A stretch of DNA of 64,000 nucleotides, from the NCBI GenBank assembly GCA_019744975.1, contig JAIETP010000002.1, forward strand, positions 4,631 to 68,630, in the 5' to 3' direction. A program made the position numbers and the translations under genes. Every line of letters starts with the position of its first letter. Position 1 is the stretch's first letter. Of the stretch, positions 18,218-36,435 are shown in pieces. The notes under the pieces were generated by a model. It saw only the letters and a list, made by a program, of their open reading frames with translations, made no database searches and was not told the DNA's origin. Source of the DNA: Burkholderiales bacterium (GTDB lineage Bacteria > Pseudomonadota > Gammaproteobacteria > Burkholderiales > SG8-41).

Positions 18218-18273
18218 AGTATTTCGCCCGGTGCGGTCCGTGCAGCCGGTGCCTGTATCAACCGAGAGGAGCG

Positions 18274-19455: not shown

Positions 19456-19628
19456 TCTGGGATACGCGGATTGCGTGATCCCGGCTGGTGCATCGGCACT
19501 GCGCTGGTGCGACCCGGCTCCGGCTTCTTCCGGATATCCGTTCTGACAGTGCGTGTGCAGTCGCGGTAAACTTCCTGCTCCTTCTGCTGTCTGAATTCCG
19601 GGTTTCCCGAAATCACTCCTTTTCCCTC

Positions 19629-20711
19629 ATGAAACGCATTGTTTATCTTGCGCTTGCGGTCGCATTGCTGGTTGCTGCCGGCCTGGCCTGGCGGCATTTT
19701 TCCAAACCCCAGCTTCCTGCGGCCAAACCCGCGGTCGCCGGTCCGGCGCGCGCCTTGCCGGTCAAGGCGGCACAGGTGCGCAAGGACACGGTGACCGATA
19801 CCGTCAGTGCGGTGGGCACGCTGCTGGCCAATGAGGCGGTGATGATCCGGCCGGAAATCGACGGACGCATCGAGGCCATTCATTTCCAGGAAGGACAAGT
19901 GGTGCGCAGGGGCGACAAGCTGGTGTCGCTGGATTCATCCGAGGTGGATGCGCAACTTGCCTCCGCGGTGGCCGCCGCCAACCTGAATCGCAGCCGGCTG
20001 AAGCGCTCCCAGGAGTTGCACGAGAAAAAATTCATCAGCGCCCAGGCACTGGACGAGGCGCGCGAAAATCTGAACCAGACCGATGCGCGTGAATCCGAAA
20101 TCAGGGCCAGGCTGGCGAAAACCGTGGTTCGCGCACCGTTTGAAGGTGTGACCGGTCTGCGCCAGATCAGCCCCGGCGCCTATGCCAAGGCGGGACAGGA
20201 CGTGGCGCGGCTCGAAGGCATCGGCATCCTGAAAATCGATTTTCGCGTGCCGGAACTGTACTTGAGCAAGGTCCGCGTTGGCCAGGCGCTGGCGGTGACA
20301 GTCGATGCCTATCCCGCTGAAACCTTCAACGGCGCAATTTATGCCATCGAACCCTCGGTTGATGAAGCGACGCGCACGGTGCTGATCCGCGCGCGCCTGC
20401 CCAATCCGGGCGTACGCCTGAAGCCCGGCATGTTCGCGCGGGTGAGTCTCGTGCTGGAGCAACGCAACAACGCGCTGCTGGTGCCGGAGCAGGCGCTGGT
20501 GCCGCGCGGCGCCGAGCGTTTTGTGTACCGCATCATCGACGGCAAAGCCGTGCTGACCAGGGTGCAGATGGGCATGCGCCGTCCCGGTGAAGTTGAAATT
20601 TTGTCCGGGCTGGAGGAGGGCCAGAGCATCGTTGCCGACGGCCAGCTGAAACTGCAGGACGGCGCGGCGGTCACCGTGATGGCGGAAAAACCGCCCGCGG
20701 CAAAGCCTTAG
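19629..20711 (+). CDS. RND efflux periplasmic adaptor (membrane fusion protein)
   Basis: Signal/anchor MKRIVYLALAVALLVAAGLA, with HlyD-like lipoyl/beta-barrel blocks. It lies directly upstream of an RND pump. Confidence 0.85.
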   Translation: MKRIVYLALAVALLVAAGLAWRHFSKPQLPAAKPAVAGPARALPVKAAQVRKDTVTDTVSAVGTLLANEAVMIRPEIDGRIEAIHFQEGQVVRRGDKLVSLDSSEVDAQLASAVAAANLNRSRLKRSQELHEKKFISAQALDEARENLNQTDARESEIRARLAKTVVRAPFEGVTGLRQISPGAYAKAGQDVARLEGIGILKIDFRVPELYLSKVRVGQALAVTVDAYPAETFNGAIYAIEPSVDEATRTVLIRARLPNPGVRLKPGMFARVSLVLEQRNNALLVPEQALVPRGAERFVYRIIDGKAVLTRVQMGMRRPGEVEILSGLEEGQSIVADGQLKLQDGAAVTVMAEKPPAAKP

Positions 20712-20722
20712 ACACCTTAACC

Positions 20723-23700
20723 ATGTTCCTGCCCGAAATTTCCGTCAAACGTCCCGTGCTGGCCACGGTGATGAGCCTGCTGATCGTGCTGATCGGCATC
20801 ATTTCCTTCGACCGGCTGACGGTGCGCGAGTATCCGAAAATTGATTCGCCGGTGGTGTCGGTGCGGACTGTGTACACGGGCGCCAGCCCGCAGGTGATCG
20901 AGTCGCAGGTGACGCAGCCGCTGGAAGACAGCATTTCCGGCATCGAGGGCGTCAAGACGCTGAAGTCGATCAGCCGCGAGGAAGTCAGCCAGATTACCGT
21001 TGAATTCACCAACGACCGCGATCCGGATCTGGCGGCCAACGACGTGCGTGACCGGGTGTCGCGCGCGCGCGAACGCCTGCCCGATGAAGTCAACGAACCG
21101 ATCATCGCCAAGGTCGAGGCCGACGCACAGGCGATCATGTGGCTGCGCCTGTTCTCAGACCGCCATGGTGCGCTGGAAATTTCCGATTATGCCGACCGGT
21201 ATGTCGCCGACCGGCTGAAAACGTTGTCCGGCGTGGCCTCGGTGATCATCGGCGGCGAACGCCGTTACGCAATGCGCATCTGGCTCGATCGCGAACGGCT
21301 GGCGGCTTACGCGCTGACGCCGCAGGATGTCGAAGACGCATTGCGCCGGCAGAACATCGAAGTGCCTTCGGGACGCATCGAAAGCAGCCAGCGCGAGTTC
21401 ACCGTGCTGTCCGAAACCGATTTGCGCACGCCGGAACAGTTCAACCAGCTGATCGTTCGTGAGGTGAAGGGTTATCCGGTGCGGCTGAGCGATCTTGGCC
21501 GCGCCGAGCTGGGTGCCGCGGATGAACGCAATATCCTGCGCGTCAACGGCAATGCCGCCGTGGGCCTGGGCATCGTCAAGCAGTCCACCGCCAATACGCT
21601 GGCCGTGGCGCAGGCGGTGAAGGCCGAGGTGCCGAAACTCGCCGCTGCATTGCCCGCCGGCATGCAGATCGCGGTGGCTTTCGACACATCCGTGTTCATC
21701 GAAAAATCGATCACTTCGGTCTATACGGTGATGGCCGAGGCGCTGGTGCTGGTGGTGCTGGTGATTTTCCTGTTCCTGCGCTCGGTGCGCGCCACGCTGA
21801 TTCCCTTCGTGACCATCCCGGTGTCTCTGGTCGGCGCCTGTTTCCTGATCTGGATCATGGGGTTTTCGATCAACGTGCTGACGCTGCTCGGCATCGTGCT
21901 CGCGGTGGGGCTGGTGGTCGATGATGCGATCGTGGTGCTGGAAAACATCCACCGCCACATCGAGGACGGCATGAAGCCTGTCGATGCGGCTTTGAAGGGC
22001 GGGCGCGAGATCGCCTTTGCCGTGGTGGCGATGACAGTGACGCTGGCTGCGGTGTTCGCACCCCTGGCATTTGCCACCGGCAATACCGGGCGGCTGTTTC
22101 TCGAGTTTGCACTGACGGTGGCCTCGGCCGTCGTGGTGTCGGGGTTTGTCGCGCTGACGCTGACACCCATGATGTGTTCGAAGCTGCTGCGCCGCGAGCC
22201 CGCCCACGGCCGTCTCTACAACGCACTGGAGCGGTTTTTCACGGCGATGTCCTCCAGCTACGAGCGGGGGCTGCGCTGGAGCCTCGCGCACCGCCTGCGG
22301 GTGGTGGCCGCGTTCGCGGTGGTTGCGGTCGCCGGCGGAACGTTGTTCATGACCATCAAGTCCGAACTGTCGCCGCTGGAAGACCGCGGTTTTTTTCTCG
22401 GTGTGATGTCGGGGCCGGAAGGTGCGACCAAGGAATACATGGATGATTACGCACGGGTGTGGGAGCGCATCTACAAGGATGTGCCGGAGATCAGTTCCTA
22501 TTTCGTTGTCGTCGCCCCCGGCCTTGATCGTCCCAACCCGGTGAATTTTGCGCTGTCATTCGTGCGGCTGACGGACTGGAGCGAGCGCAGCCGCAAGACG
22601 CAGGAGATCACCGCGTCGATTGCGCCGAAAATGTTCGCGACCATGCCCGGCGTACTGGCGTTCCCGATCAATCCGCCGTCACTGGGCCAGAGCTTCCGCA
22701 ATCCAGCCCTGCAATTCGTGGTGCAGGGCAATTCGTATGAAGACCTCGACCGCAAGGTCAATGCATTGATGGCGAAGGCGCGCACTTCACCGGCGCTGAC
22801 CAACATCGACAGCGACCTGAAACTCAACAAACCCCAGTTGTCGGTGGACATCGACCGTGAGAAGGCGGCGGTGCTGGGCATCCAGATCGAAACCATAGGC
22901 CGTACGCTGGAAACGCTGCTCGGCGGGCGCCAGGTCACGCGCTTCAAGCGCGAAGGCAAGCAGTACGATGTCATTGTCAAGCTCGAAGACAAGGACCGGC
23001 GCAAACCCACCGATCTGACCTCGATTTATGTGCGCGGTGCGACTGGAAGCGTCACCCAGCTTTCGAACCTGGTCACGGTGCGCGAAACGGTCGCGCCCAA
23101 GGAACTCAACCATTTCAACCGGCTGCGCGCCGCGATCATCTCCGCCAACGTCGCGCCCGGGTATACGCTGAACGAGGCACTGACGGTCATGGAGCAGGCG
23201 GCCGGCGAAGTGCTGACGCCGGAGTACCAGACGGCGCTCGACGGCCAGTCGCGTGAATTCCGCGAGTCCGGTCAGCAGCTCTACCTGATATTCGTGCTGG
23301 CTCTGGCTTTCATCTATCTGGTGCTGGCCGCGCAATTCGAGAGTTTCCGCGGCCCGCTGGTGATCATGCTGACCGTGCCGCTGGCGGTGACCGGTGCGCT
23401 GCTGATCATGAAGCTCACGGGCGGTACTCTCAACGTCTACAGCCAGATCGGGCTGGTGATGCTGATCGGACTGATCACCAAAAACGGCATCCTGATCGTC
23501 GAGTTCGCCAACCAGTTGCGCGACCAGGGCCGCGAAAAAATAGAGGCACTGGCCGAGGCCTGTGCGCTGCGGCTGCGGCCGATCCTGATGACCACGCTGG
23601 CCACCGTGCTCGGTGCGGTGCCGCTGGCTGTTGCGACAGGGGCCGGGGCTGAGTCGCGTTCTGCGATCGGCTGGGTGATTGTCGGCGGCATGAGTTTCGG

Positions 23701-23806
23701 TACGCTGTTCACGCTGTTCGTGATTCCCGTGGCTTATACCTATATTGTTGGTGATCGCGCGCTGCCGGAGGCAGAGGGCGTTCCGGCCCCGGCGTCAGGA
23801 CACTGA
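20723..23806 (+). CDS. RND (HAE1-type) efflux permease
   Basis: 1027 aa with a 12-TM AcrB-like architecture (FSINVLTLLGIVLAVGLVVDDAIVVLENI). Confidence 0.9.
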   Translation: MFLPEISVKRPVLATVMSLLIVLIGIISFDRLTVREYPKIDSPVVSVRTVYTGASPQVIESQVTQPLEDSISGIEGVKTLKSISREEVSQITVEFTNDRDPDLAANDVRDRVSRARERLPDEVNEPIIAKVEADAQAIMWLRLFSDRHGALEISDYADRYVADRLKTLSGVASVIIGGERRYAMRIWLDRERLAAYALTPQDVEDALRRQNIEVPSGRIESSQREFTVLSETDLRTPEQFNQLIVREVKGYPVRLSDLGRAELGAADERNILRVNGNAAVGLGIVKQSTANTLAVAQAVKAEVPKLAAALPAGMQIAVAFDTSVFIEKSITSVYTVMAEALVLVVLVIFLFLRSVRATLIPFVTIPVSLVGACFLIWIMGFSINVLTLLGIVLAVGLVVDDAIVVLENIHRHIEDGMKPVDAALKGGREIAFAVVAMTVTLAAVFAPLAFATGNTGRLFLEFALTVASAVVVSGFVALTLTPMMCSKLLRREPAHGRLYNALERFFTAMSSSYERGLRWSLAHRLRVVAAFAVVAVAGGTLFMTIKSELSPLEDRGFFLGVMSGPEGATKEYMDDYARVWERIYKDVPEISSYFVVVAPGLDRPNPVNFALSFVRLTDWSERSRKTQEITASIAPKMFATMPGVLAFPINPPSLGQSFRNPALQFVVQGNSYEDLDRKVNALMAKARTSPALTNIDSDLKLNKPQLSVDIDREKAAVLGIQIETIGRTLETLLGGRQVTRFKREGKQYDVIVKLEDKDRRKPTDLTSIYVRGATGSVTQLSNLVTVRETVAPKELNHFNRLRAAIISANVAPGYTLNEALTVMEQAAGEVLTPEYQTALDGQSREFRESGQQLYLIFVLALAFIYLVLAAQFESFRGPLVIMLTVPLAVTGALLIMKLTGGTLNVYSQIGLVMLIGLITKNGILIVEFANQLRDQGREKIEALAEACALRLRPILMTTLATVLGAVPLAVATGAGAESRSAIGWVIVGGMSFGTLFTLFVIPVAYTYIVGDRALPEAEGVPAPASGH

Positions 23807-24730
23807 GCGTGACGATTCTGCGACGCAAGTCTGCAGGGCGCGGTCCAGCCAGCCCTTGGCGCTGACCTGCTCGACAAACCACTTCAATGCCTTGCCGCGG
23901 TGCGTCGTGCGCCAGGCGACGTACAGCATCTGGCTGACCTTGGGTTCTTCGGTGCGGCGAATCACCAATTCACCTTTGGCGGCGACTGTGGCGGCCAGGC
24001 ACTGCGGCAGGTAACCCACGCCCAGGCCCATGACCTGTGCCTGCAGCTTGGATGCCGTGTCGAATACGGTCAGCGTTTCCTGTCCCGATATCAATCCGGT
24101 GGTGCGCGGCGGCAGGTTGCGTGAGCTGTCGGCGACGGTGATTGCACGATGTTTCAGGATGTCGTCGCGGGTCAGTGGTTCGGCTGCCGCCGCCAGAGGA
24201 TGTGTCGGCGCGATCGCAAACACCCAGTCGATTTCCCCCAGCGTACGCGTCTGGTAACCACCACCTGCGGGGCCGTCGCCCGATGCGCCGATGGCGAGAT
24301 CGGCGCGGCCCGAAGCCAGGGCATCCCAGCAGCCGCCCAGTACTTCGGTCGAAAATCGCAGGCGGGTGCTGGTGGTCTCGGCATGGAAATCACGCGCGAG
24401 TTCGAGCATCACGGTGGGCGGGATCAGGCCATCGAAGGCGATGCGCAGTTCGGCTTCCCAGCCGGTGGCGACGCGTTTGACGCGGGATTCCAGATCGACG
24501 GCGGCATGCAGCAGGTGGCGGCCTTCGTTCAGCAGCTCATGGCCGGCGGGTGTGAGTTTGGCGCGATGACCGCGGCGGTCGAACAACAGTACGTCGAGGT
24601 CTTCTTCGAGTTTTTGCACGGTGTAGGTGATCGCCGAGGGCACGCGATGCAGTTCGTGCGCGGCGGCGGCGAAGCTGCCTTTGCGGTCGATGGCGTCGAT
24701 CACCAGTAATGCGTCGAGGGAGAGTCTCAT
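23795..24730 (-). CDS. LysR-family transcriptional regulator
   Basis: N-terminal HTH (FAAAAHELHRVPSAITYTVQKLEEDL) and a size of 311 aa. It is divergent from the pirin gene. Confidence 0.9.
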   Translation of the reverse strand: MRLSLDALLVIDAIDRKGSFAAAAHELHRVPSAITYTVQKLEEDLDVLLFDRRGHRAKLTPAGHELLNEGRHLLHAAVDLESRVKRVATGWEAELRIAFDGLIPPTVMLELARDFHAETTSTRLRFSTEVLGGCWDALASGRADLAIGASGDGPAGGGYQTRTLGEIDWVFAIAPTHPLAAAAEPLTRDDILKHRAITVADSSRNLPPRTTGLISGQETLTVFDTASKLQAQVMGLGVGYLPQCLAATVAAKGELVIRRTEEPKVSQMLYVAWRTTHRGKALKWFVEQVSAKGWLDRALQTCVAESSRSVS

Positions 24731-24780
24731 GTTCGATCAAGCCTTGATGCAGTTAAACAATAAATTCTTAGTTATTAATA

Positions 24781-24800
24781 TAACATATTGTTTTTAAATA
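24781..24800 (-). repeat. AT-box copy (ATATTTAAAAACAATATGTT on the minus strand)
   Basis: Motif family, in the LysR/pirin divergent region. Confidence 0.5.
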
Positions 24801-24938
24801 TAAATATAGTTCATAAATTTTGACTGATTTGATCAAATAGTTTCGCTATCAAGTGCCGGCCGGCGCTCCCAGAATGCGTTTCATGCAATACCCGATCAAC
24901 GCAACCGGTAATCAACGCAAATGCAAAAAGGAGAAAAC

Positions 24939-25634
24939 ATGCTGACCCTGCGCAAAAGTGAAGACCGCGGCCATGCCAACCACGGCTGGCTGGATTCGTA
25001 CCACAGCTTCTCCTTTGCCGGTTACCACGACCCCGAACACATGGGTTATGGCCCGCTGCGCGTTATCAACGAAGACCGCGTGCAGGCCGGCTCCGGCTTC
25101 GGCACCCACGGCCATCGCGACATGGAAATCATCAGCTATGTGCTCGAAGGTGGACTGGGCCATGAGGATTCGATGGGCAACGGTTCAACGATCGTGCCCG
25201 GTGATGTGCAGCGCATGAGCGCCGGCACGGGTGTGCGCCATTCCGAATTCAATCACAACAAATCCGGGACGACGCATTTCCTGCAGATCTGGATCGAGCC
25301 GAGGTTCACCGGCATCAAGCCGTCTTATGAGCAGAAGCATTTTTCTGCTGAAGAAAAACGCGGACGCCTGCGTCTGATCGTCTCGCCCGATGGACGCGAC
25401 GGTTCGGTGGCGATGAACCAAGACGCGCTGCTGTATGCCGGCCTGTTTAATGGCGCGGAGCGCGGCGAACTGCGGCTGGACGAAGGACGCCGGGCTTATG
25501 TGCATGTCGCGCGCGGGCAGATCACCGTCAACGGCCAGGTGCTGGGTGCCGGTGATGCGCTGAAAACCGGTGCCGGCACGCTGACACTGGAAAACGGACA
25601 GGCAGCCGAAGTGCTGGTATTCGATCTGCCCTGA
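24939..25634 (+). CDS. pirin-family (cupin) protein
   Basis: RGHANHGWLDSYHSFSF...HGHRDMEIISYVLEG pirin signature. RBS AAAGGAG precedes ATG 24939. Confidence 0.85.
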   Translation: MLTLRKSEDRGHANHGWLDSYHSFSFAGYHDPEHMGYGPLRVINEDRVQAGSGFGTHGHRDMEIISYVLEGGLGHEDSMGNGSTIVPGDVQRMSAGTGVRHSEFNHNKSGTTHFLQIWIEPRFTGIKPSYEQKHFSAEEKRGRLRLIVSPDGRDGSVAMNQDALLYAGLFNGAERGELRLDEGRRAYVHVARGQITVNGQVLGAGDALKTGAGTLTLENGQAAEVLVFDLP

Positions 25635-25646
25635 TTTCTCATAAGT

Positions 25647-25670
25647 GCGGCGTTTCGCCGCTTTTGTTTT
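25647..25670 (+). terminator. rho-independent terminator after pirin
   Basis: gcggcg ttt cgccgc stem-loop followed by ttttgtttt. Confidence 0.7.
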
Positions 25671-25681
25671 AATTGATTTTT
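25661..25681 (-). repeat. AT-box-like copy (AAAAAATCAATTAAAACAAAA on the minus strand)
   Basis: Weaker family member that overlaps a terminator T-run. Confidence 0.35.
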
Positions 25682-25698
25682 TCGGAAAAGGAGATGTC

Positions 25699-26250
25699 AT
25701 GAGTCAGTATCCCATTGCCGTGATTGTCGGCAGCCTGCGCAAGGATTCCTTCAATGCAAAACTTGCTGCCGCGCTGGCGAAACTTGCGCCGGCCGGTTTT
25801 TCATTCAAGCCGGTGCGCATTGATGATTTGCCGCTCTATAACCAGGACGACGACGGCAAACCCGCCGCATCGGTGTTGCGCCTGAAAAAGGAAATCGCGG
25901 AAGCCCATGGCCTGCTGTTCCTGACTCCGGAGTACAACCGCTCGATTCCGGGCGTGCTGAAGAATGCGATTGATCATGCTTCGCGGCCTTATGGGCAGAG
26001 CGTCTGGGGCGGCAAGCCCGCGGGTTTGCTCGGCGTGTCGGTCGGGGCAATAGGCACGGCGCTGGCGCAACAACATCTGCGCAACATTCTTGCCTATCTC
26101 GATGTGCCGACGCTGGGCCAGCCCGAGGTGTTCCTGCAGGCCAAGGAAGGGCTGTTTGATGCGGATGGCGGCATCGGAACCGACAGCCGGAAATTCCTGC
26201 AGGACTGGATGGACCGTTACGCAGCCTGGGTGAAGCAGCACAGCGCCTGA
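25699..26250 (+). CDS. NADPH-dependent FMN reductase family protein
   Basis: IAVIVGSLRKDSFN...LFLTPEYNRSIPGVLKNAID signature. RBS GGAG is upstream. Confidence 0.85.
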   Translation: MSQYPIAVIVGSLRKDSFNAKLAAALAKLAPAGFSFKPVRIDDLPLYNQDDDGKPAASVLRLKKEIAEAHGLLFLTPEYNRSIPGVLKNAIDHASRPYGQSVWGGKPAGLLGVSVGAIGTALAQQHLRNILAYLDVPTLGQPEVFLQAKEGLFDADGGIGTDSRKFLQDWMDRYAAWVKQHSA

Positions 26251-26271
26251 ACGGCAGACCGGAGTGCAACC

Positions 26272-27057
26272 ATGACGACACGTATGCCCGCGCTGTTTGT
26301 TTCACACGGTGCGCCGACACTGGCACTGGAACCGGGGCCGACGCGCGGTTTTCTCGCGCAACTCGGCACCGGGCTCGGGCGGCCCAAAGCCATATTCGTG
26401 GTGTCGGCGCACTGGGAAACGGCGGCGCCTGCGGTCAGCACCGCGCTGCAGCCGGAGACCATCCATGATTTTTACGGTTTCCCGGAAGCGCTGTACCAGA
26501 TGCGTTATCCGGCGCCGGGGGCACCGTTACTCGCCCAGCAGGCGCTGTGGTTATTGACCGAGGCGGGCCTGGCTGCCGCTGCAGTGCCGGATCGCGGCCT
26601 TGATCACGGCGCCTGGGTGCCCTTGCGGCTGATGTATCCGAAGGCGGATATTCCCGTGGCGCAGATTGCAGTGCAGACCCGGCTGGGTCCGGCGCATCAC
26701 TTCAAGCTGGGCGAGGTCTTGCGGCCATTGCGCGAAGAGGGCGTATTGATCATCGGTTCCGGCAGCGCGACTCATAATCTCAGCGAATTCCGCAACCATG
26801 GTTATGATTCGCCGCCGCCGGACTGGGTCAGCACATTCGATGACTGGCTGGCAGAAACGCTTGCCGCGGGACGCACTGCGGATCTGCTGGATTATCGCCG
26901 GTTGGCACCGCAGGCGGCGCGTAATCATCCGACCGAAGAGCATCTGCTGCCCTTGTTTGCCGCTCATGGTGCAGGGACACCCGGAGTGCCGCCGCAACAC
27001 ATCCACAGCGGTTACACCTACGGCGTGATCGGCATGGATGCCTGGCGTTTCGACTGA
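26272..27057 (+). CDS. ygiD: class III extradiol dioxygenase (4,5-DOPA dioxygenase, YgiD-like)
   Basis: MPALFVSHGAPT...SAHW...IIGSGSATHNL...EHLLPLF blocks. Confidence 0.8.
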   Translation: MTTRMPALFVSHGAPTLALEPGPTRGFLAQLGTGLGRPKAIFVVSAHWETAAPAVSTALQPETIHDFYGFPEALYQMRYPAPGAPLLAQQALWLLTEAGLAAAAVPDRGLDHGAWVPLRLMYPKADIPVAQIAVQTRLGPAHHFKLGEVLRPLREEGVLIIGSGSATHNLSEFRNHGYDSPPPDWVSTFDDWLAETLAAGRTADLLDYRRLAPQAARNHPTEEHLLPLFAAHGAGTPGVPPQHIHSGYTYGVIGMDAWRFD

Positions 27058-27133: not shown

Positions 27134-28084
27134 ATGGAACAGATGACCAGTCTGCTGGCGCAGCACGGCCTTCTTCTCGTATTCGTCAACGTGCTGCTGA
27201 CGCAGGCAGGTATTCCGGTGCCGGCAGTGCCGATGCTGGTGGTCGCGGGCGCGCTGGCGGCGCAGGGCGAATTTGGCTATATCGCGTTGCTGCTGACTGC
27301 GCTGGCGGCAACGCTGGCCGGTGATGTTCCCTGGTATTTTGCCGGCCAGCGCTACGGTCATCGCGTGCTGCGCACCCTGTGCCGGATTTCGATCGAGCCG
27401 GATTCCTGTGTAAAGCAGACCGAATCCATTTTCGAGCGCTGGGGCGCGCCGTCGCTGATCGTGGCCAAATACATTCCCGGATTTTCAACGGTTGCACCGC
27501 CGCTCGCCGGTGCGATGCGGCTGGGTTTGCCGTCCTTCCTGCTGTTCAGCACGCTCGGCGCCCTGTTGTGGATCGCAGTGCCGGTGGCGCTGGGCGCGGT
27601 GTTCCATGCCGAAGTCGAGTGGGCGCTCGAAAGGTTGACCGAGCTCGGTTCCGGCGCACTGCTGACGCTGGCCGTGGTGGCGCTGCTGTATGCGGGTGTC
27701 AAGGCGATGCAGCGTTACCTGTTCCTGCGCATGCTGCGCGCGGCGAGGATGACCGTGCAGGAACTGCGCGAATTGCTGCAGGGTGAAATTCCGCCGGTGG
27801 TGGTCGATGTGCGCTCGGATGTCGTGCGCAGGCTCGATCCGCGGCGCATACCCGGCGCCATTGCCGTGAACATGGAGAATGCCGCCGCCGCGCTGGAGGA
27901 AATTCCGCCGGACCGCGACGTGGTGGTGTATTGCAGTTGACCCAACGAAGCCAGCGCGGCGCGTGTCGCCCGCATGTTGATGGACCGGGGTTATCAAAGA
28001 GTGCGTCCGCTGGAAGGCGGGCTGGATGCATGGATCGCCGATGGCGGCGAAGTGACTTTTTTTGAGGTTGATATTCGAGGTTAA
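27134..28084 (+). CDS. DedA-family membrane domain fused to a C-terminal rhodanese domain; interrupted by an in-frame TGA at 27938-27940
   Basis: The 268-aa ORF ends ...DRDVVVYCS-TGA. The same frame continues with no further stop as PNEASAARVARMLMDRGYQRVRPLEGGLDAWIADGG to TAA at 28082-28084, which completes the rhodanese fold. Confidence 0.65.
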
Positions 28085-28099
28085 CCAGTGGAGACCGCT

Positions 28100-28705
28100 A
28101 TGCAGGAACGCAAGGCAATGACCAGTGTGCCCATCAACGATCTCGCGGCGCGGCGCTGGAGTCCGCGCGCCTTCGACGCGACGCGGGGTGTCAGCGCTGC
28201 GCAGCAGATGGCCTTGATCGAAGCGGCGCGCTGGTCGCCCTCGTGTTTCGGTGCCGAGCCCTGGCGTTTCCTGGTGTGGAACCGGACGACTGATCCCGCG
28301 GGCTGGCAGCAGGCTTTCGACTGCCTGTCGGAAAACAACCGCAAATGGTGCAAAAAAGTGCCGTTGCTGTTCATGTCCTGCGCCGGCGCTACATTCGAAC
28401 ACAATGGTCAAGCCAATCGCTGGGCACAGTACGACACCGGCATGGCGGCCTTGTCATTGTCGCTGGAGGCGGTGGCTCAGGGGCTGGTTGCGCACCAGAT
28501 GGGTGGTTTTGATATTGCCAAGGCGCGTGCTGCGTTTGCAATCCCCGACGATTTCATGCCGATGGCGATGATTGCAGTCGGCCATCAGGCCGCTGCGGAC
28601 ACCATCGAAGACGAAGAAACGCGGCAGAAGGAACTTAAAGCCCGCGGGCGTAAAGCTGTGGCCGCGCGTTTTTACGCCGGCCGCTGGGGCCATCCCGCCG
28701 GTTGA
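28100..28705 (+). CDS. nitroreductase-family protein
   Basis: RRWSPRAF...EAARWSPSCFGAEPWRF motifs. A GTG at 28088 is an alternative start. Confidence 0.8.
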   Translation: MQERKAMTSVPINDLAARRWSPRAFDATRGVSAAQQMALIEAARWSPSCFGAEPWRFLVWNRTTDPAGWQQAFDCLSENNRKWCKKVPLLFMSCAGATFEHNGQANRWAQYDTGMAALSLSLEAVAQGLVAHQMGGFDIAKARAAFAIPDDFMPMAMIAVGHQAAADTIEDEETRQKELKARGRKAVAARFYAGRWGHPAG

Positions 28706-30493: not shown

Positions 30494-31906
30494 TCATAAC
30501 TGCAGTCCTTCCCATCCGCCGCCCAGCGCCCTGACCACATCGGCCACGGCGGCGCGTTGCGCGCGCAGCGCATCAGCGCGGTTGAGTTCGGCGTTGAGCA
30601 GGTTGCGCTCCGCGTCGAGGACCTCCAGCTGGCTGGTCAGGCCGTTGTCGTAACGGACGCGGGCCAGTCGCAGGGATTCGTTCAGCGCCACGGCGCGCGC
30701 GGTTCCGGCATCAAACACTTCGCGGGCCTTGGTCTGCGCCACCAGCGCATCATGGGTTTCGCGGAACGCCGTCTGCAGGGTTTTCTGGTACTGCGCCAGC
30801 GCCTGTCGCTCACGCGCTTCGACAGCCTCGATTTCGCCGAACAGCCGGCCGCCCTGGAAAATCGGTTGCGCCAGTGCAAATCCGAGACTCCAGATCCCCG
30901 CCGGTCCCGTGAACAGATCGGTCAGCGCGGCGCTTTCGCTGCCGAGGTAACCGCTGAGTCCGATGCGCGGGAAAAGTGCCGCGCGGGCGGCGCCGATGCG
31001 GGCGTTGGCGGCGATCAATTGTTGTTCGGCGGCAACCACATCGGGCCGGCGCAGCAGCAGTGACGAGGGCAGATCGGCCGGGATCACCGGTGTCGCCGGC
31101 TGACCGGCTTCGGCGGTGCGGGCGACGCTGTCGTTGATCAATGCACGCGGGCTGCGGCCGAGCAGCACCCCCAATGCGAGTTCTTCGCCGGTGCGACGGC
31201 GTTCGAGCGCCGGCAACTGTGCCTGTGCCGCGAGCACTTCGGCTTCGATCTGGCGCAGCGTGAATTCATTGATCAACCCGGCGTTGGCGCGGGTGCGCTG
31301 CAGCCGGAAGTCCTGCTGGCGCAGTTCCAGCGATCTGCGTGTCGCAGCGATCTGCGCGTCAAAGGACACCAGCGCGTAGTACGAGCGGACAACCTCGGCG
31401 GTCAGCGCGATGCGCACGGTTTCCCGTGCGGCGGTTGTCGCCAGCAACCCGGCGCGTGCGGCCTTGCTGCTGTTGCTCAGGCGGCCCCACAGGTCGATTT
31501 CATAAGCGACATTGAGTTGAGCGCGGTAGTTGTTGTTTTCCAGTGCGCCCGGAATCCGTGTCGCGGTGCTGTTCGAGCGCCGGCTGCGGTCACGCTGGAA
31601 CGTGGCGTCTACCGATGGCGCTTGTTCTGCGTCGGCAATCCGCGCCAGCGCGCGCGCTTCATCGAGCCGGGCGGTGGCCAGCGCCAGATCCTGGTTGCCG
31701 GCCAGCGCTTCGCTCACCAGGCGGTCCAGCGTGGCATCGCCATAGATCGCCCACCAGCGTTCGGCGGGCATGGTTTTTCCCTGCGCCGGCACAGCGAGCC
31801 AGGCTTCCGGCAGTTCGGCGGCGGGCCGTTCGTACGCCGGACCGATGCTGCAGCCGGCGAGCAGGGTTGATGCAAGCGCAATGTAAATCAGTGATCGCTT
31901 ATTCAT
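30494..31906 (-). CDS. RND efflux outer-membrane factor lipoprotein (NodT/OprM family)
   Basis: Lipobox LLAGCS. The start ATG overlaps the pump stop (ATGAATAA). Confidence 0.9.
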   Translation of the reverse strand: MNKRSLIYIALASTLLAGCSIGPAYERPAAELPEAWLAVPAQGKTMPAERWWAIYGDATLDRLVSEALAGNQDLALATARLDEARALARIADAEQAPSVDATFQRDRSRRSNSTATRIPGALENNNYRAQLNVAYEIDLWGRLSNSSKAARAGLLATTAARETVRIALTAEVVRSYYALVSFDAQIAATRRSLELRQQDFRLQRTRANAGLINEFTLRQIEAEVLAAQAQLPALERRRTGEELALGVLLGRSPRALINDSVARTAEAGQPATPVIPADLPSSLLLRRPDVVAAEQQLIAANARIGAARAALFPRIGLSGYLGSESAALTDLFTGPAGIWSLGFALAQPIFQGGRLFGEIEAVEARERQALAQYQKTLQTAFRETHDALVAQTKAREVFDAGTARAVALNESLRLARVRYDNGLTSQLEVLDAERNLLNAELNRADALRAQRAAVADVVRALGGGWEGLQL

Positions 31907-34900
31907 TGCCGGTTTCCTTGCTGGGCGGGGCATGACGCGGGGTATGGGTCGAGCGCAATGCCAGCTCGCGATGATGCGCGACTTCACTTTCAATCTCGGC
32001 AGTGGAGCGGCTGTCGGATAATTTTCGATCAACGATCAGTTTGTAGAACCACGGGATGAAGAAAATCGCGAGGAAGGTCGCCGCCAGCATGCCGCCCATC
32101 ACCCCCGTGCCGGCGGAGTGGCGCGCGCCGGCGCCGGCGCCGCTGGAAATGACCAGCGGCACCACGCCGAGAATGAAGGCGAGCGAGGTCATCAGGATCG
32201 GGCGGAAACGCAGGCGGGCCGCTTCGATGGCTGCCGCCGAGGTCGACATGCCTTCGTTCTTTTTCATCACTGCGAACTCGACGATCAGGATCGCGTTTTT
32301 CGCGGCCAGGCCGAGCAGCGTGACCAGGCCGATCTGGAAATAAACGTCATTGCTGAGCCGCGCGATGCCGGCCAGCGGCGACAGCAGTCCCTGCAGCCAG
32401 GGTATGCCCTGCGCCAGGTAATAGGGCATCGGCAGCAGGTTGTTGATGAAAATGGCCGCCAGCGCACCGAAGGTGCCGAAGGGCAGTGCCAGCATCACCG
32501 CCAGCGGCAGTGACCAGCGGTCGTATTGCGCGGCAAGAATCAGGAACACCATCAGTGCGGCGAGTCCCAGCGCCAGCACCGAGGTGCCGCCCGAGCGTTT
32601 TTCCTGGAACGAGGAGCCGCCCCAGTCAAAGGTGAAATCGGCCGGCAGCGTCGCCTTCGCGATGCGTTCCATGCCGGCGATGGCTTCACCGGAGCTGAAC
32701 CCGGGTTGAGCTGAACCGAAGATCTTGACCGCAGGCAGGTTGTTGAAACGGTCCAGCGAATCCGGGCCCGATGAGTAATTCACCTTGGCCAGCGCCGACA
32801 GCGGCACCATCGCGCCGTGTTCCGAGCGCACGTACACCGCGCCAACGTCGTCCGGGCGTTTGCGGTAGCCGGGTTCCGCCGACATCAGCACCTGCCAGGT
32901 GCGGCCGAATTTGTTGAAGTCATTGACGTAGGCGGTGCCCAGCGTCGCGGCGAGCGTGTTGTAGAGTTCGTCGATCGGCACGCCCAGTGTTTTGGCTTTT
33001 TCGCGGTCGGTTTCGACGTAGAGCTGCGGCACGTTGGCGCGCCACAAGGTGTTGACCTGGCCGAACATCGGATCCTTCTGCACCGCGGCGAGCAGCTGCT
33101 GTGTCGCTTCGGACAGTTTCTGTGCGCCGCCTTCGCCGCGGTTCTGGATATAGAACTCGAAGCCGCCGGCGTTGCCCAGGCCGAAAATCGGCGGCGGGCC
33201 GAAGGCCAGCGCCAGGCCTTCCTTGATGTGCGCGGTTTTCATGAAAAACTCGCCGACCAGCTGGCCGGTGGACACCGTGCGTTCATCCCAGTGTTTCTGG
33301 GTGACGAAAATTGTCGCCGCGCTGTTGCGGAAACCGCCGCCGAGGAAGTCGAAGCCGGTGAAGGCGATCGCGGTTTCGTTGGCCGGATTCGACTTGATGA
33401 TCTCAACCACTTCGTTGACCACCTTGTCGGTGCGTTCAAGGGTCGCGCCATCCGGCAGGAACACCGCTGCGATGTAATAACCCTGGTCCTCATCGGGCAC
33501 CAGAGAACCCGGCGTGGCGCGCCACAGGCCGAAGGTCAGCGCGACCATGCCGGCAAAGAGCAGCACGGCGATCAGGCCGCGGCGCAGCATCCAGGTCACA
33601 CCGTCGACATAACGCCCGGTCATGCGGCTGAACCAGTCGTTGAACCAGGTGAAAAAGCGGCCGGGTTTCGCGTGCTGGCGTTTCAGGATCAGTACGCACA
33701 GTGAGGGCGTCAGCGTCAGAGCGACGATGCCCGAGATCACCACCGCGATCGATATGGTCACGGCAAACTGGCGGTAGAGTTCGCCAGTCAGGCCGCCGAG
33801 GAAGGCGATGGGTACAAACACCGCGCACAGCGTCAGCACGATGGCGATGATCGGGCTGGTGACCTCGCGCATCGCCTTGATCGCCGCTTCGCGCGCATCG
33901 AGACGTTCCTCGTGCATGATGCGTTCGACGTTTTCCAGCACCACGATGGCATCGTCAACGACGATGCCGATGGCCAGCACCATGCCGAACAATGTCAGCG
34001 TGTTGATCGAATAACCGAGCAGCAGCAGGCCGGCGAAGGTGCCGATCAGCGATACCGGCACAGCGGCAAACGGGATCAGCGTGGCGCGCCAGTTCTGCAG
34101 GAACAGGAACACCACCAGGAACACCAGCGCCATCGCTTCGAGCAGGGTGTAGATCACCTCGCGGATCGAGACTTCGACGAAACGCGTGGTGTCGTACACC
34201 ACGATGTGGGTCAGGCCCGGCGGATAGACCTGCGCCAGCGGCGTCAGTACCGCCTTCACGCGGTCGGCGGTGGCCAGCGCATTGGAGTTGGGTTGCAGGA
34301 AAATACCGACCAGGGTCGCTGTTTTTCCGTTGACGCGGCCGATGAACTCGTAATCCTTGGAGCCCAGTTCGACGCGCGCCACATCCTTCAGCCGGAGCAG
34401 TGTGCCGTCGGGGTTGGCGCGGACGACGATGTTCTCGAACTCCGCGGGTTCCGACAGCCGGCCCTTGGTGGTGATGGTATAGACCAGTTCCTGTGGGCCG
34501 CCGGTCGGCGATTGGCCGATCTTGCCGGCGGCGAACTGCGCGTTTTGTTCGTTCAGCGCACGCGTCAGGTCACCCGGCGTCAGCTTCAACTGCGCCAAGC
34601 GGTCGGGACGCGTCCAGATGCGCATCGCGTAATCCTTGGCGCCGAAAATCTGCACGTTGGTGGTGCCGGGTATGCGTTTCAGCGCGTCGAGCACGTTCAG
34701 CGTGACGTAGTTCGAGATGAACAGGTCGTCGCGGCTGCCGTCGGGGGAGCTGAAGGCGATCACCTGCAGGAACGCCGACGAACCTTTTTCCACAGTGACA
34801 CCCTGGCGCCGGACTTCCAGCGGCAGGCGCGGTTCGGCCTGTTTGACGCGGTTGTTGACGTTCAGCGCCGCCTTGTCGACATCGGCGCCGATTTCGAAGG

Positions 34901-35177
34901 TGACCTGGATTTCAACGACACCGCTCGAAGTCGAGGTCGAACTCATGTAGAGCATGTTCTCGACACCGGTGATCTGGTTTTCCAGCGGGGCGGCGACGGT
35001 CTGTTCCAGCACCTGGGCCGAAGCGCCGGGATAGATCGCGCGCACGGTGACCACCGGCGGGGCGATTTCCGGATATTGCGCAATCGGCAGCACGCGTATC
35101 GCGGCCATGCCGGCGAGTACGATGAAAATCGAAATCACCACCGCGAAGATCGGGCGGTCTATGAAAAAACGTGACAT
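31899..35177 (-). CDS. multidrug RND permease (AcrB/MexB-like)
   Basis: 1092 aa beginning MSRFFIDRPIFAVVISIFIVLAG, with the classic AcrB architecture. Confidence 0.9.
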   Translation of the reverse strand: MSRFFIDRPIFAVVISIFIVLAGMAAIRVLPIAQYPEIAPPVVTVRAIYPGASAQVLEQTVAAPLENQITGVENMLYMSSTSTSSGVVEIQVTFEIGADVDKAALNVNNRVKQAEPRLPLEVRRQGVTVEKGSSAFLQVIAFSSPDGSRDDLFISNYVTLNVLDALKRIPGTTNVQIFGAKDYAMRIWTRPDRLAQLKLTPGDLTRALNEQNAQFAAGKIGQSPTGGPQELVYTITTKGRLSEPAEFENIVVRANPDGTLLRLKDVARVELGSKDYEFIGRVNGKTATLVGIFLQPNSNALATADRVKAVLTPLAQVYPPGLTHIVVYDTTRFVEVSIREVIYTLLEAMALVFLVVFLFLQNWRATLIPFAAVPVSLIGTFAGLLLLGYSINTLTLFGMVLAIGIVVDDAIVVLENVERIMHEERLDAREAAIKAMREVTSPIIAIVLTLCAVFVPIAFLGGLTGELYRQFAVTISIAVVISGIVALTLTPSLCVLILKRQHAKPGRFFTWFNDWFSRMTGRYVDGVTWMLRRGLIAVLLFAGMVALTFGLWRATPGSLVPDEDQGYYIAAVFLPDGATLERTDKVVNEVVEIIKSNPANETAIAFTGFDFLGGGFRNSAATIFVTQKHWDERTVSTGQLVGEFFMKTAHIKEGLALAFGPPPIFGLGNAGGFEFYIQNRGEGGAQKLSEATQQLLAAVQKDPMFGQVNTLWRANVPQLYVETDREKAKTLGVPIDELYNTLAATLGTAYVNDFNKFGRTWQVLMSAEPGYRKRPDDVGAVYVRSEHGAMVPLSALAKVNYSSGPDSLDRFNNLPAVKIFGSAQPGFSSGEAIAGMERIAKATLPADFTFDWGGSSFQEKRSGGTSVLALGLAALMVFLILAAQYDRWSLPLAVMLALPFGTFGALAAIFINNLLPMPYYLAQGIPWLQGLLSPLAGIARLSNDVYFQIGLVTLLGLAAKNAILIVEFAVMKKNEGMSTSAAAIEAARLRFRPILMTSLAFILGVVPLVISSGAGAGARHSAGTGVMGGMLAATFLAIFFIPWFYKLIVDRKLSDSRSTAEIESEVAHHRELALRSTHTPRHAPPSKETGNE

Positions 35178-35196
35178 GGTTATCAGTCCGCCGGGT

Positions 35197-36435
35197 TCAG
35201 GATTTCACGGCCGGCTTGGCCGCGGGTTTTTCTTTTGGGGAGGCCGCTGGTTTTTCCGTCGGCTTGCCGTTCGTTGCCGGAGCTGCCGGCTCGGTGACAT
35301 TGACCGGAGCGCCGGGACCGATTTTCAGCACACCGTCGACGATCACGCGTTCGCCGGGTTTGAGGCCGGCGTTGATCACCCAGCCGTCGCTGACCCAGGC
35401 GCCGACTTCAACCGGGCGCGCTTCGGCTTTGGATTCGGCGTTGACCACGTAGACGAATTTCCCGGCCGGGCTTTCGAGCACCGCGCGCTGCGGGATGACG
35501 ATGGCCGCGGGCCGTATCGCGCCGGAGAGCGCAATGCGCACGAATTCACCGGCGCGCAACTGGTTGCCGGGATTGGGGAACTCGGCGCGCGATTCGCTGG
35601 TGCCGGTCTGGGTGTTGACCCGGACATCGCTGAAATTGACCGCGCCGCTGCGTGCATAGTCGCGGCCGTCGCCGAGTTTCAGCGTGGCTTTGAGTTTGCC
35701 GTCGGCCGGCAGCTTGATGCGGCCGGCTTCAACATCGCGTCGCAGCGCGAGGTGGTCACGGTCGGAGACGCCGAATATCACGTACATCGGATCAGTCTGG
35801 GTGACCGTGGTCAGCAATACGCCGGGACCGGAGACCAGCGTGCCCTCGGATACCGCGGCACGACCGGCAATGCCGGTGATCGGCGCTTCGACGCGGGTCC
35901 ACTCCATGTTGAGACGCGCTTCATTGACCCGGGCGCGGGCACTCTCGACCTGGGCGCGGGTGATGCGTTCACTTGACGTCGCATCATCGAGTTCTTTCTG
36001 GCTGACGGCCTTGGCTTCGTATACGGGTTTCAGGCGTGCCAGTTCACGTTGCGCCTGCTGCAGTTGTGCTTCGGCAACACCGAGGTCCGCCTGGGCGCGC
36101 GCTTGTGCAAGCTGGAAGGGGGCGGGGTCAATGGTAAACAGGGATTCACCCTGGCGTACTGTACTGCCTTCGCGGTAATTCCTTTTCAGCAGGATGCCGC
36201 TGACCCGGGCGCGCACCTCGACTTCACGGTAACCCGCGGTCTGTGCGGTGTAATCCAGCGTGATCGGAACATCGCGTGTTTCGGTGGTTACGACGGAGAC
36301 CGGGGATGGCGGAAAAGCGGGCGGGCCGCCGGCCGGGCCGCAGCCGGCGACCAGGCCGGCAATGAGCAGCGACGCCGCAGCCAGGGGGGGGTGGCGCAGT
36401 GCGGAACGCAAATAAGGAGCGTAGAGGGCGATCAT
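35197..36435 (-). CDS. RND periplasmic adaptor (AcrA/MexA-like)
   Basis: Lipobox LVAGCG and membrane-fusion-protein blocks. It is the first gene of the efflux operon. Confidence 0.9.
   Translation of the reverse strand: MIALYAPYLRSALRHPPLAAASLLIAGLVAGCGPAGGPPAFPPSPVSVVTTETRDVPITLDYTAQTAGYREVEVRARVSGILLKRNYREGSTVRQGESLFTIDPAPFQLAQARAQADLGVAEAQLQQAQRELARLKPVYEAKAVSQKELDDATSSERITRAQVESARARVNEARLNMEWTRVEAPITGIAGRAAVSEGTLVSGPGVLLTTVTQTDPMYVIFGVSDRDHLALRRDVEAGRIKLPADGKLKATLKLGDGRDYARSGAVNFSDVRVNTQTGTSESRAEFPNPGNQLRAGEFVRIALSGAIRPAAIVIPQRAVLESPAGKFVYVVNAESKAEARPVEVGAWVSDGWVINAGLKPGERVIVDGVLKIGPGAPVNVTEPAAPATNGKPTEKPAASPKEKPAAKPAVKS

Follow-up and report, generated by a model that had tools for sequence, protein, structure and literature searches.

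In the current analysis of a 64,000-nucleotide stretch of Burkholderiales DNA, referred to here as the window, we have identified a gene of DedA-rhodanese fusion type in which an in-frame TGA (27938-27940) very probably serves as a selenocysteine codon and places Sec269 (U269) in the active site of the rhodanese domain. The predicted product of 27134-28084 is one inner-membrane protein of 316 residues, in which an N-terminal DedA/VTT domain is followed by the last transmembrane helix, a basic linker and then the rhodanese domain. Taken as a whole, a Sec-containing DedA-rhodanese protein is the best explanation of the observations and is considered highly likely. The gene and its surroundings are organised as follows.

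26272-27057, + strand: gene of a LigB/YgiD-like extradiol dioxygenase, directly upstream (Pfam LigB)
27134-28084, + strand: putative full-length DedA(VTT)-rhodanese fusion gene, 316 codons (268, the UGA/Sec269 codon and 47) plus TAA
27218-27598, + strand: DedA/VTT membrane domain, residues 29-155 (PF09335)
27380-27409, + strand: Cys83...Cys92 (LCRISIEPDSC), a pair situated on a basic loop within the DedA part (alignments)
27650-27742, + strand: residues 173-203, with the last transmembrane helix and a basic linker next to the membrane (model helix 173-203)
27752-28039, + strand: rhodanese domain, residues 207-302, broken by the UGA (PF00581, NF041203 and Foldseek)
27932-27934, + strand: TGC codon of Cys267, the C of the C-x-U dyad, invariant across all relatives
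27938-27940, + strand: UGA, very probably Sec (U269), in the rhodanese active-site loop, where it probably takes the place of the catalytic Cys (comparison)
27953-27973, + strand: putative bacterial SECIS element, invariant block AGCGCGGCGCGUGUCGCCCGC (frozen synonymous codons, pairing and motif specificity)
28088-28705, + strand: nitroreductase-family gene, directly downstream (Pfam Nitroreductase)

The original prediction, made from the letters of the sequence, had described a frame that stops at the TGA and then stays open for 47 more codons, and translation bears this out. The frame 27134-27940 (+) specifies 268 residues ending in ...DRDVVVYCS, and the 47 codons that follow in the same frame (PNEASAARVARMLMDRGYQRVRPLEGGLDAWIADGGEVTFFEVDIRG) are closed by a TAA at 28082-28084. 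Gene callers divide this region into a protein of 268 residues and a separate fragment of 36 residues, and the truncated gene, where named, is annotated as a 268-aa 'VTT domain-containing protein'. The tblastn alignments with relatives cross the TGA and reach residues 301-316.

Domain profiles of Pfam were searched with the translation in which Cys was substituted for the TGA. The fusion of a DedA and a rhodanese domain proposed earlier is recovered, with both domains scoring over their cutoffs: the VTT/DedA profile PF09335 matches at 52.3 bits (cutoff 33.9) over profile positions 1-122 of 123, and the Rhodanese profile PF00581 at 48.9 bits (cutoff 22.2). Scores of the fusion protein against the DedA and UptA equivalog models of NCBIfam are far below their cutoffs. 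In the AlphaFold model of a homologue (P0025) the DedA part is all-helical, and a Foldseek search with this model finds no solved structure resembling that part. The same search matches the rhodanese structures 3ilm, 6mxv and others, with target-normalised TM-scores of 0.7-0.87 to 3ilm and 3hix. In the DedA part C83 and C92 are unchanged throughout alignments A1 and A2, and the residues K190, R194, R199, R202 and R205 of the linker region are invariant or almost so.

The active-site loop reads C267-S-U269-P-N-E-A-S-A. Counted from the TGA, G286-Y287 fall at +17/+18 and G295-W300, the GGxxAW motif, at +26 to +31, just as had been predicted; these distances we take to be those of GlpE. In the alignment with 6mxv, U269 lies opposite the catalytic Cys, and the spacing from U269 to the GY/GF motif is gapless and equal to that of CoADR-RHD; the alignment with 6pfz places C267, not U269, at the catalytic Cys and has a 2-residue gap. 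Confidence of the AlphaFold model of P0025 is <50 at residues 269-271. Relatives had been expected to read CxCPNEASA in this loop, and full-length homologues with Cys opposite the UGA indeed have VVYCSCPNEASAARVA or YCSCPNEASAARVA; they include P0025, P0034, P0050 and P0060 as well as ten loci with TGC or TGT. The suggested C-x-U pair is likewise seen, Cys267 being located two residues before the UGA and invariant across relatives.

Of 80 GTDB species-representative genomes, 70 have TGA at the codon of U269 and the other 10 have TGC or TGT, and the TGA is retained by orthologues down to about 42% pairwise identity. Nearly all of the best 120 protein matches end at exactly 268 residues, and 25 of the best 150 cluster representatives at 50% identity terminate in ...C-[S/T/A]. 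All carriers of the TGA are uncultured MAGs. The fusion with TGA is widespread among uncultured Burkholderiales, and an Acidobacteriota MAG is also found among the 80 loci. One Cys form (L010) is nested among Sec forms and probably represents a reversal from Sec to Cys, and there is also a separate Cys clade; the two constitute a natural experiment in Sec/Cys exchange.

As the alternative to selenocysteine, a pseudogene of very recent origin or a sequencing error had been put forward, to which an assembly error at position 27940 may be added, one base being enough to convert TGC or TGT into TGA, and a single window cannot exclude such a change. This alternative is excluded because the TGA is conserved across genomes, and we find it scarcely credible. 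Seventy independent species-level genomes share the TGA, as do 114 metagenome contigs from many samples; the identical protein occurs on two independent assemblies (JGI 3300039028 and GCA_020051055.1), and purifying selection acts on both halves of the gene. A systematic artefact shared by different projects and assemblers is implausible. Reassignment of UGA throughout the genome is dismissed on the ground that no other codon serves as an ordinary stop more often in the window, where TGA ends 22 of 34 long frames.

Were the TGA a true stop, the functional product would be a DedA protein of 268 residues whose tail is a vestigial half of a rhodanese domain, the 47 codons forming a separate small peptide or a conserved untranslated element. 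The division made by gene callers, in which the 36-aa frame starts from an ATG at 27974, is in line with such an arrangement, and failed Sec insertion inevitably yields the truncated product. We nevertheless regard a true stop as very unlikely, for the split would cut the active-site loop of the rhodanese domain, the Cys homologues are contiguous, no Met occurs within the first 33 downstream codons in 9 of 70 carriers, and the variation at downstream codon positions fits translation in the upstream frame. The entropy at codon positions 1, 2 and 3 is 0.52, 0.37 and 1.23 bit downstream (+36 to +104) and 0.75, 0.56 and 1.41 bit upstream. By sequence comparison the region after the TGA is under purifying selection and evolves as translated protein. 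Also against a true stop, synonymous freezing of codons begins just 15 nt past the TGA, as predicted for a SECIS element.

The GC hairpin with a CGUGU loop that had been noticed about 21 nt after the UGA is present. Its 5' arm occupies 27954/27956-27961, the loop 27962-27966 and the 3' arm 27967-27973, and the apical loop is located 21 nt past the UGA. The upper stem has 4 bp, with 2-3 more bp below a bulged C, and the pairing can be drawn in either of two registers, each with one bulged C and equally good. The criteria described for bacterial SECIS elements comprise a loop of 3-9 nt, a stem of at least 4 bp, a G in loop positions 1-2, a spacing of 16-37 nt and an energy of -7.5 kcal/mol or lower (PMC13188914). 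The hairpin at 27953-27973, with a folding energy of -10.7 kcal/mol, agrees with all of them. It had rightly been cautioned that such a hairpin is not diagnostic by itself: no stability above that of shuffled sequence is observed, with z close to 0 for Sec and Cys forms alike. Stability is no evidence in GC-rich coding sequence, and conservation at synonymous sites has therefore been used instead.

Seven codons at +15 to +35 from the TGA (27953-27973) are synonymously frozen, and only in TGA carriers. Codons 274-280 read AGC GCG GCG CGT GTC GCC CGC in 63-65 of 65 genes, whose proteins share pairwise identities of 42 to 96%. The synonymous-codon entropy in this block is 0-0.23 bit, the lowest window of the gene; at the 97 other conserved degenerate codons it is above 0.25 bit without exception, with a mean of 1.25 bit. 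The Cys forms have the same amino acids with varying codons (TCG for Ser; +26, +32 and +35 variable), and L010 is already altered at two hairpin positions. The hairpin positions are paired in 98.8-99.3% of counts. One locus (L073) shows a compensatory, doubly synonymous change from G-C to C-G, and covariation is limited to this single event because the element hardly varies. The 21-nt motif occurs once in the window, and in 114 of 120 metagenome contigs a TGA lies exactly 15 nt 5' of it. Chance appears to be excluded by these comparative data, not by one genome alone. Rfam gives no match for the whole window at gathering thresholds, nor for 27850-28150 at E<=10. A longer hairpin of minimum free energy with a UGU loop (14 to 41 nt past the UGA) was also considered, in which 91.7% of cells are paired; its lower stem is often unpaired, the hairpin is broken in L073, and it has been rejected. 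The 21 nucleotides of the putative element at 27953-27973 stay invariant even between proteins of no more than 42% identity; it is an unusually clean natural SECIS, and its family could help to define SelB recognition in Burkholderiales and to improve SECIS predictors.

Other genes with TGA at selenocysteine positions accompany the fusion gene. A gene of the UGSC family is situated on the same contig, its first base 19 nt beyond the end of the window. This gene (contig Ga0438479_0122; Pfam, 73 bits) has a TGA at the U of VIVGNAA-U-GSC, 479 more in-frame codons after the TGA and a hairpin with the loop CGUGCU. A second TGA-containing gene of known selenoprotein type has been found on 8 further contigs, seven of which carry the Sec form of the DedA-rhodanese gene, the remaining one being a duplicate of the UGSC region of the window. 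In relatives, AhpD-like CxxU genes or UGSC genes adjoin the DedA-rhodanese gene, and a scan for TGA-bridged frames across loci recovered the AhpD-like gene. A GC3 scan of the window for other TGA-bridged frames gave six weak candidates, none of them convincing.

Searches by tblastn with E. coli SelA, SelB and SelD and by ARAGORN, covering a small part of each genome (about 85 kb here), detected no selA, selB, selD or tRNA-Sec in the 64-kb window, in 13 kb of the contig outside it or in 206 related loci. This result would suit a Sec-independent read-through of the UGA, in which the hairpin would stimulate decoding by a near-cognate tRNA of Trp, Cys or Arg, or by an unknown recoding route, and a full-length protein free of selenium would result. 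Termination at UGA is generally taken to be leaky when the next base is C, and C follows the UGA in all 71 carriers. Read-through of this kind is improbable, however, as the recoded site is probably that of the catalytic Cys and alternates with Cys only, the hallmark of Sec/Cys pairs. The hairpin matches the SelB-type SECIS model, the UGSC and AhpD-like genes on the same or related contigs have their TGA exactly at known Sec positions, and the top family match of the protein, NF041203, is itself a (seleno)protein model. The selenocysteine reading of the original prediction is supported by the TGA in 70 of 80 genomes, by the purifying selection on the downstream frame, by the SECIS-type hairpin tied to the TGA and by the UGSC gene on the same contig.

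NF041203 (rhodanese_LYCAU, form 3) is the top NCBIfam match, with 74.5 bits over profile positions 19-118 of 126. This score is below the cutoff of 115, which places the DedA-rhodanese protein outside the NF041203 equivalog. The NF041203 type of rhodanese is catalogued as a known, computationally predicted selenoprotein. The rhodanese fold, the C-x-U arrangement and the Sec/Cys alternation are common to both, with LYCAU in that family and VYCSU here, whereas the loop U-PNEAS-A differs from that of NF041203. With its 126 positions, the NF041203 model points to a small protein that stands alone, in contrast to the C-terminal part of a polytopic fusion of 316 residues. In a homology search restricted to the rhodanese domain most matches were fragments of the same fusion family, and they did not clarify how it relates to stand-alone NF041203 proteins.

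TsoB (NF045694, form 5) is a partial precedent in that a Sec rhodanese is fused to an integral membrane redox/transport module. Its membrane partner is DsbD-like with UxxxxU and two Sec, whereas the protein described here has VTT and one Sec, and the NCBIfam search of the fusion protein gave no match to NF045694 at E<=0.01. The novelty claimed in the original prediction holds within the literature searched and NCBIfam: no DedA domain is found among the five rhodanese selenoprotein forms, no DedA selenoprotein was found in that literature, and the Sec form of DedA-rhodanese is absent from the 2026 review of the five forms and from NCBIfam release 20. The protein is almost certainly a real selenoprotein, judged from sequence, and a variant of the CxU rhodanese kind that is missing from current catalogues; its biochemical role is only what we infer. 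Recognition of the Sec codon would mend truncated annotations in at least 70 species-level genomes and add a membrane-protein family to the bacterial selenoproteome.

The Cys-type DedA-rhodanese fusions (CxCP[ND][ED]; P0025, L069-L080) share the architecture and the loop and are 52-66% identical, but have TGC or TGT in place of the UGA and lack the frozen hairpin sequence. They form a large family (453 cluster representatives at E<=1e-30) that is annotated only as 'DedA / rhodanese-related sulfurtransferase', and none of its members has been characterised. The VTT domain PF09335 is shared with the DedA proteins (E. coli DedA/YqjA/YghB and UptA, and DedA of Cupriavidus metallidurans). Matches to the PRK10847 and UptA models are weak; the profile models of E. 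coli DedA and UptA have about 200-220 positions and are without a rhodanese part. The single-domain rhodaneses GlpE and PspE score only 22.9 and 16.2 bits. The active-site loop of GlpE is YHGNS, as against PNEAS without basic residues here. The SECIS of E. coli fdhF type is similar in being a hairpin within the coding region, in having GU in the apical loop and in its spacing of about 20 nt, but its sequence is unrelated.

By the established bacterial Sec pathway, the hairpin 27954-27973 within the coding sequence would drive the recoding by recruiting SelB bearing Sec-tRNA(Sec). Where selenium or SelB is limiting, translation would stop at the UGA, and the product would be a DedA protein of 268 residues carrying only half of the rhodanese domain. 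We infer a cytoplasmic location for the rhodanese domain and for the Cys83/Cys92 loop, the positive-inside rule being the basis of this placement. The C-x-U loop has no basic residue and one Glu, which argues against a classical thiosulfate-binding sulfurtransferase and for a selenol/thiol redox centre, in which the dyad would cycle via a selenylsulfide. Redox equivalents may possibly be relayed from C267/U269 to the DedA part, where the loop with the invariant Cys83 and Cys92 is a candidate redox partner of the CxU site; the model lends no structural support to this relay, because its confidence is low at both loops (EPDSC, residues 87-91, in the DedA part). By this means the transport activity of DedA could be linked to the cytoplasmic redox or chalcogen state, a function that is suggested tentatively.

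It is doubtful that the protein represents a sixth, uncatalogued class of rhodanese-type selenoproteins, with a cytoplasmic Cys-x-Sec rhodanese mechanistically coupled to a DedA transporter. In one option a chalcogen (Se derived from selenide or selenite, persulfide sulfur or tellurium) could be caught as a selenylsulfide or Se-X adduct and then passed to or from the membrane domain; in the other, DedA transport could be gated by the redox state. A DedA protein is linked to selenite uptake and resistance by Ledgham 2005, as that work is cited in PMC10470534. Such a coupled class, if true, would provide the first biochemical handle on DedA and selenium, and an example of selenoproteins used by largely aerobic, uncultured Burkholderiales. 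According to the review, selenoproteins are rarely retained by aerobic bacteria, and the fusion joins three poorly understood topics, namely DedA transporters, the non-canonical CxC rhodanese loop and selenium in mostly aerobic lineages.

The neighbours of the fusion gene are conserved and include a LysR regulator, pirin, FMN reductase, the YgiD-like dioxygenase and the nitroreductase. Because of them, the data suggest a role in the response to quinones, electrophiles or oxidative stress. A LigB/YgiD-like gene is located within 4 kb in 30 of 80 loci, the Acidobacteriota MAG included, and is on the same strand in 29; 38 of 80 loci have a nitroreductase gene downstream at a distance of up to 4 kb. 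The neighbours at other loci include GST, KefB, DoxX and CDGSH.

The DNA at 27134-28084 (+) encodes a DedA (VTT)-rhodanese fusion that is interrupted by an in-frame TGA. The first ORF, 27134-27940 (+), comprises 268 residues with the C-terminal end ...DRDVVVYCS, followed by the stop TGA 27938-27940. Beyond it the reading frame is open through another 47 sense codons, PNEASAARVARMLMDRGYQRVRPLEGGLDAWIADGGEVTFFEVDIRG, up to TAA 28082-28084, as translation has confirmed for the frame described in the original prediction. The fusion proposed there has also been recovered: when Cys is put in place of the stop, Pfam assigns a VTT/DedA domain to residues 29-155 and a whole rhodanese domain to residues 207-302, both above cutoff. 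Where such proteins are named in the sources they are referred to as 268-aa 'VTT domain-containing protein' or 'DedA'.

In a search of 5.8 billion proteins, nearly all of the best 120 matches (63-100% identity) have a length of exactly 268 aa and are thus cut at the same codon; four full-length ones (316-323 aa) have Cys at the TGA position, in the context VVYC[SN]CPNE[AV]SAARVA. The original prediction had proposed reading this codon in orthologues. With one genome scanned for each GTDB species, 416 relatives were obtained, and the best 80 carry TGA (70), TGC (7) or TGT (3) at the position of U269, the residue at the TGA, with tblastn matches passing straight across the stop to residues 301-316. 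The TGA carriers are nearly all uncultured Burkholderiales or Betaproteobacteria MAGs, with one Acidobacteriota MAG (L073). Two assemblies made independently, JGI 3300039028 contig Ga0438479_0122 and NCBI MAG GCA_020051055.1, encode the window's protein in identical form. A very recent pseudogene, considered in the original prediction, and a sequencing or assembly error are therefore excluded, since the TGA is kept across the relatives and the same protein occurs on both assemblies. The fusion family comprises 453 cluster representatives (50% identity) at an E-value of 1e-30 or better. Among the best 150 of these, 25 end in ...C-[S/T/A], a mark of further Sec-type lineages, and many full-length ones contain CxCP[ND][ED].

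A few individual loci deserve mention. At locus L010 the codon is TGT (10805). This Cys form groups within the Sec clade, shares 90% identity with the Sec form L015 and gives the impression that Cys has recently replaced Sec. In L049 an in-frame TAG lies within the rhodanese domain (...MNKGYR*IRPLEGG...), some 60 nt beyond the TGA at 10805; either the copy is decaying or that MAG contains an assembly error. In L105 and L168 the motif is present and the upstream sequence is disrupted. Several MAG records with this betaproteobacterial locus (L001, L019, L025, L030, L035, L043, L049, L061 and L065) bear the title 'Bordetella parapertussis' or 'uncultured Streptomycetaceae', which look like automated taxonomic mislabels.

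Judged from codon comparison, the sequence after the TGA is translated. Among the 70 TGA carriers the mean entropy of codon positions 1/2/3 is 0.52/0.37/1.23 bit downstream (+36 to +104) and 0.75/0.56/1.41 bit upstream, with the same periodicity. Independent initiation downstream of the TGA is rejected as a general explanation, because in nine of the 70 carriers Met is absent from the 33 codons that follow the TGA. Reassignment of UGA in the genetic code is also rejected: among ordinary stops in the window TGA is the most frequent, ending 22 of 34 long high-GC3 frames, one of them the upstream LigB-like gene (27055-27057).

The hairpin noted in the original prediction is present downstream of the TGA.

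27954/27956-27973, + strand: hairpin with loop CGUGU at 27962-27966

Its stability is no better than that of shuffled sequence (z about 0), in keeping with the earlier caution that the hairpin alone is not diagnostic; the single window is therefore undecided and comparative evidence decides. The analysis of synonymous sites covered 65 TGA-type genes without gaps, with protein identities of 42-96% (median 59%). Codons S274-R280 (+15 to +35, 27953-27973) read AGC GCG GCG CGT GTC GCC CGC in 63-65 of the 65, and with a synonymous-codon entropy of 0-0.23 bit they form the lowest window of the gene; all 97 other conserved degenerate codons exceed 0.25 bit (mean 1.25). In the ten Cys forms, residues that are identical or similar are specified by varied codons, Ser being TCG in 9 of 10 and positions +26, +32 and +35 each showing three different bases. 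In L010 two hairpin positions are already altered (CGT to CGC in the loop and GTC to GTT at the closing pair), with the hairpin otherwise mostly intact. The block folds into a 4-bp upper stem and a 2-3-bp lower stem with one bulged C, and pairing in either register is kept in 98.8-99.3% of cells in 71 sequences; a longer MFE hairpin with a UGU loop fits more poorly (91.7% of cells paired). L073, the sole divergent carrier, shows a compensatory and doubly synonymous G-C to C-G exchange. As the element barely varies, covariation is thin, with one event only, and the case for an RNA element is made by the synonymous-site freezing specific to TGA carriers. All values of the hairpin lie within the limits of the published bacterial SECIS model (PMC13188914).

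Hairpin compared with the bacterial SECIS model (required; here)
Apical loop: 3-9 nt; 5 nt (CGUGU)
Upper stem: 4-16 bp; 4 bp
G within first two loop positions: yes; yes (G, then U)
UGA-to-loop spacing: 16-37 nt; 21 nt
Minimum free energy: -7.5 kcal/mol or lower; -10.7 kcal/mol

The 21-nt motif occurs once in the window. In public metagenomes a TGA lies exactly 15 nt upstream of it in 114 of 120 motif-bearing contigs, in the context YC[STNA]-U-PNEASAARVAR. The block is, to all appearance, an RNA element tied to the TGA. The Ser codon before the UGA (27935-27937) is AGT in all 54 carriers with Ser there, the Cys267 codon is TGC in 60 of 65 carriers and C always follows the UGA, which may point to a constraint of recoding context outside the hairpin.

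The conserved TGA, the downstream translation and the TGA-specific freezing of the hairpin support the selenocysteine reading of the original prediction, and the UGA very probably encodes Sec. No selA, selB, selD or tRNA-Sec has been found in the 64-kb window, 13 kb of extra contig or 206 related loci, which represent a sliver of each genome. Sec decoding is supported by two independent proxies, a UGSC-family gene on the same contig (L087 is the locus there) and selenoprotein-type TGA genes on other contigs with Sec forms.

L087:12124-13857, + strand: UGSC-family gene on the window's contig (Ga0438479_0122); its start, at 64019 in window coordinates, is 19 nt outside the window
L031:15308-15697: more distant UGSC gene with TGA, on a contig also with a Sec-form gene
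L050:12918-13256: more distant UGSC gene with TGA, on a contig also with a Sec-form gene
L003:11051-11620: AhpD-like gene, TGA 11303
L004:5236-5790: AhpD-like gene, TGA 5488
L014:11844-12398: AhpD-like gene, TGA 12093
L067:2772-3326: AhpD-like gene, TGA 3024
L196:10776-11327: AhpD-like gene

UGSC is a recognised selenoprotein family. The L087 gene has its TGA at L087:12415-12417 within VIVGNAA-U-GSC, followed by 479 in-frame codons, and scores 73 bits with Pfam UGSC (cutoff 25) and 47.6 bits with NF041046 'UGSC family (seleno)protein'. In the hairpin after its TGA, GCGGC-CGUGCU-GCCGC, the loop starts with CGUG as in the DedA-rhodanese hairpin. Gene callers split the gene into 97-aa and 446-aa ORFs, and the C-terminal part (about 430 aa) fused to the N-terminal UGSC domain has no family match. 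The AhpD/CMD/YciW-like CxxU gene, with TGA in ECGY-U-SNQG, is found on five Sec-form contigs and is absent from the window; in 4 of 5 loci it follows the end of the Sec-form DedA-rhodanese gene at a distance of about 0.1-1 kb. Its best NCBIfam match, NF053654 'YciW-related (seleno)protein', is far below cutoff, and its hairpin, of 7 bp with a GUC loop, contains one pair that has changed from A-U to C-G in a compensatory manner.

In a 2026 review, which lists over 100 families of prokaryotic selenoproteins, rhodaneses account for five forms: UxxS, UxxG (twice), CxU (NF041203) and the rhodanese/DsbD fusion TsoB. The best NCBIfam model for the present protein is NF041203 'rhodanese-related (seleno)protein', with which it shares the CxU-type motif (LYCAU there); at 74.5 bits, below the cutoff of 115, it is related to this family and not a member. 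DedA, VTT, TVP38 and PF09335 are absent from the text of the review, full-text literature searches combining DedA, VTT or TVP38 with selenoprotein or selenocysteine gave nothing relevant, and NCBIfam release 20 has no model covering the fusion. As far as these sources reach, the novelty claimed in the original prediction is therefore upheld for the membrane-integral DedA architecture, which we rate as new, the rhodanese CxU kind being known.

One alignment places U269 at the catalytic Cys of the solved rhodanese 6mxv and a further one places C267 there instead; the spacing from U269 to the GY/GF motif is gapless, as in CoADR-RHD. The AlphaFold model of the full-length Cys homologue P0025 (pLDDT 78.7) has an all-helical membrane part (residues 1-203) and an alpha/beta domain whose Foldseek matches are rhodaneses only; Foldseek gave no PDB match for the DedA part. 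A basic stretch follows the last helix (K190, R194, R199, R202, R205) and residues 72-103 form a basic loop, so that by the positive-inside rule the cytoplasmic side would contain both the invariant Cys83/Cys92 pair and the rhodanese domain.

Sec insertion at UGA 27938, steered by the hairpin at 27954-27973, would on the basis of comparison yield a single 316-aa protein. Classical thiosulfate sulfurtransferases have basic residues in the active-site loop. The loop U-P-N-E-A-S-A has none and a Cys stands two residues upstream of U, which favours a putative selenol/thiol redox centre at C267/U269, working via a selenylsulfide cycle, over a classical sulfurtransferase. An exchange between this centre and Cys83/Cys92 may link it to DedA transport. 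Among the 80 loci a LigB/YgiD-like gene lies upstream in 30 and a nitroreductase gene downstream in 38, with pirin (25) and FMN reductase (14) nearby; a LysR regulator is among the neighbours, and GST, KefB, DoxX and CDGSH occur in other loci. These neighbours point to a possible role in quinone, electrophile or oxidative stress. An alternative predicted function is chalcogen (Se/S) trafficking; a DedA protein of Cupriavidus has a reported connection with the uptake of selenite (Ledgham 2005, as cited in PMC10470534).

The gene is flanked by two RND efflux systems (MFP, ACR_tran, OEP) at about 17100-26300 and 30500-36450. The upstream block in the window encodes thioredoxin, alpha/beta-hydrolase, LysR regulator, pirin and FMN reductase, and many TctC/Bug-family receptor genes occur along the contig. 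A RelE/HTH_3 pair is found at about 37486-37950. At 62855-63855 (+) a PhdYeFM-antitoxin gene (about 62855-63205) adjoins a Zeta-toxin/AAA_33 gene (63223-63855), and the pair looks like a toxin-antitoxin module.
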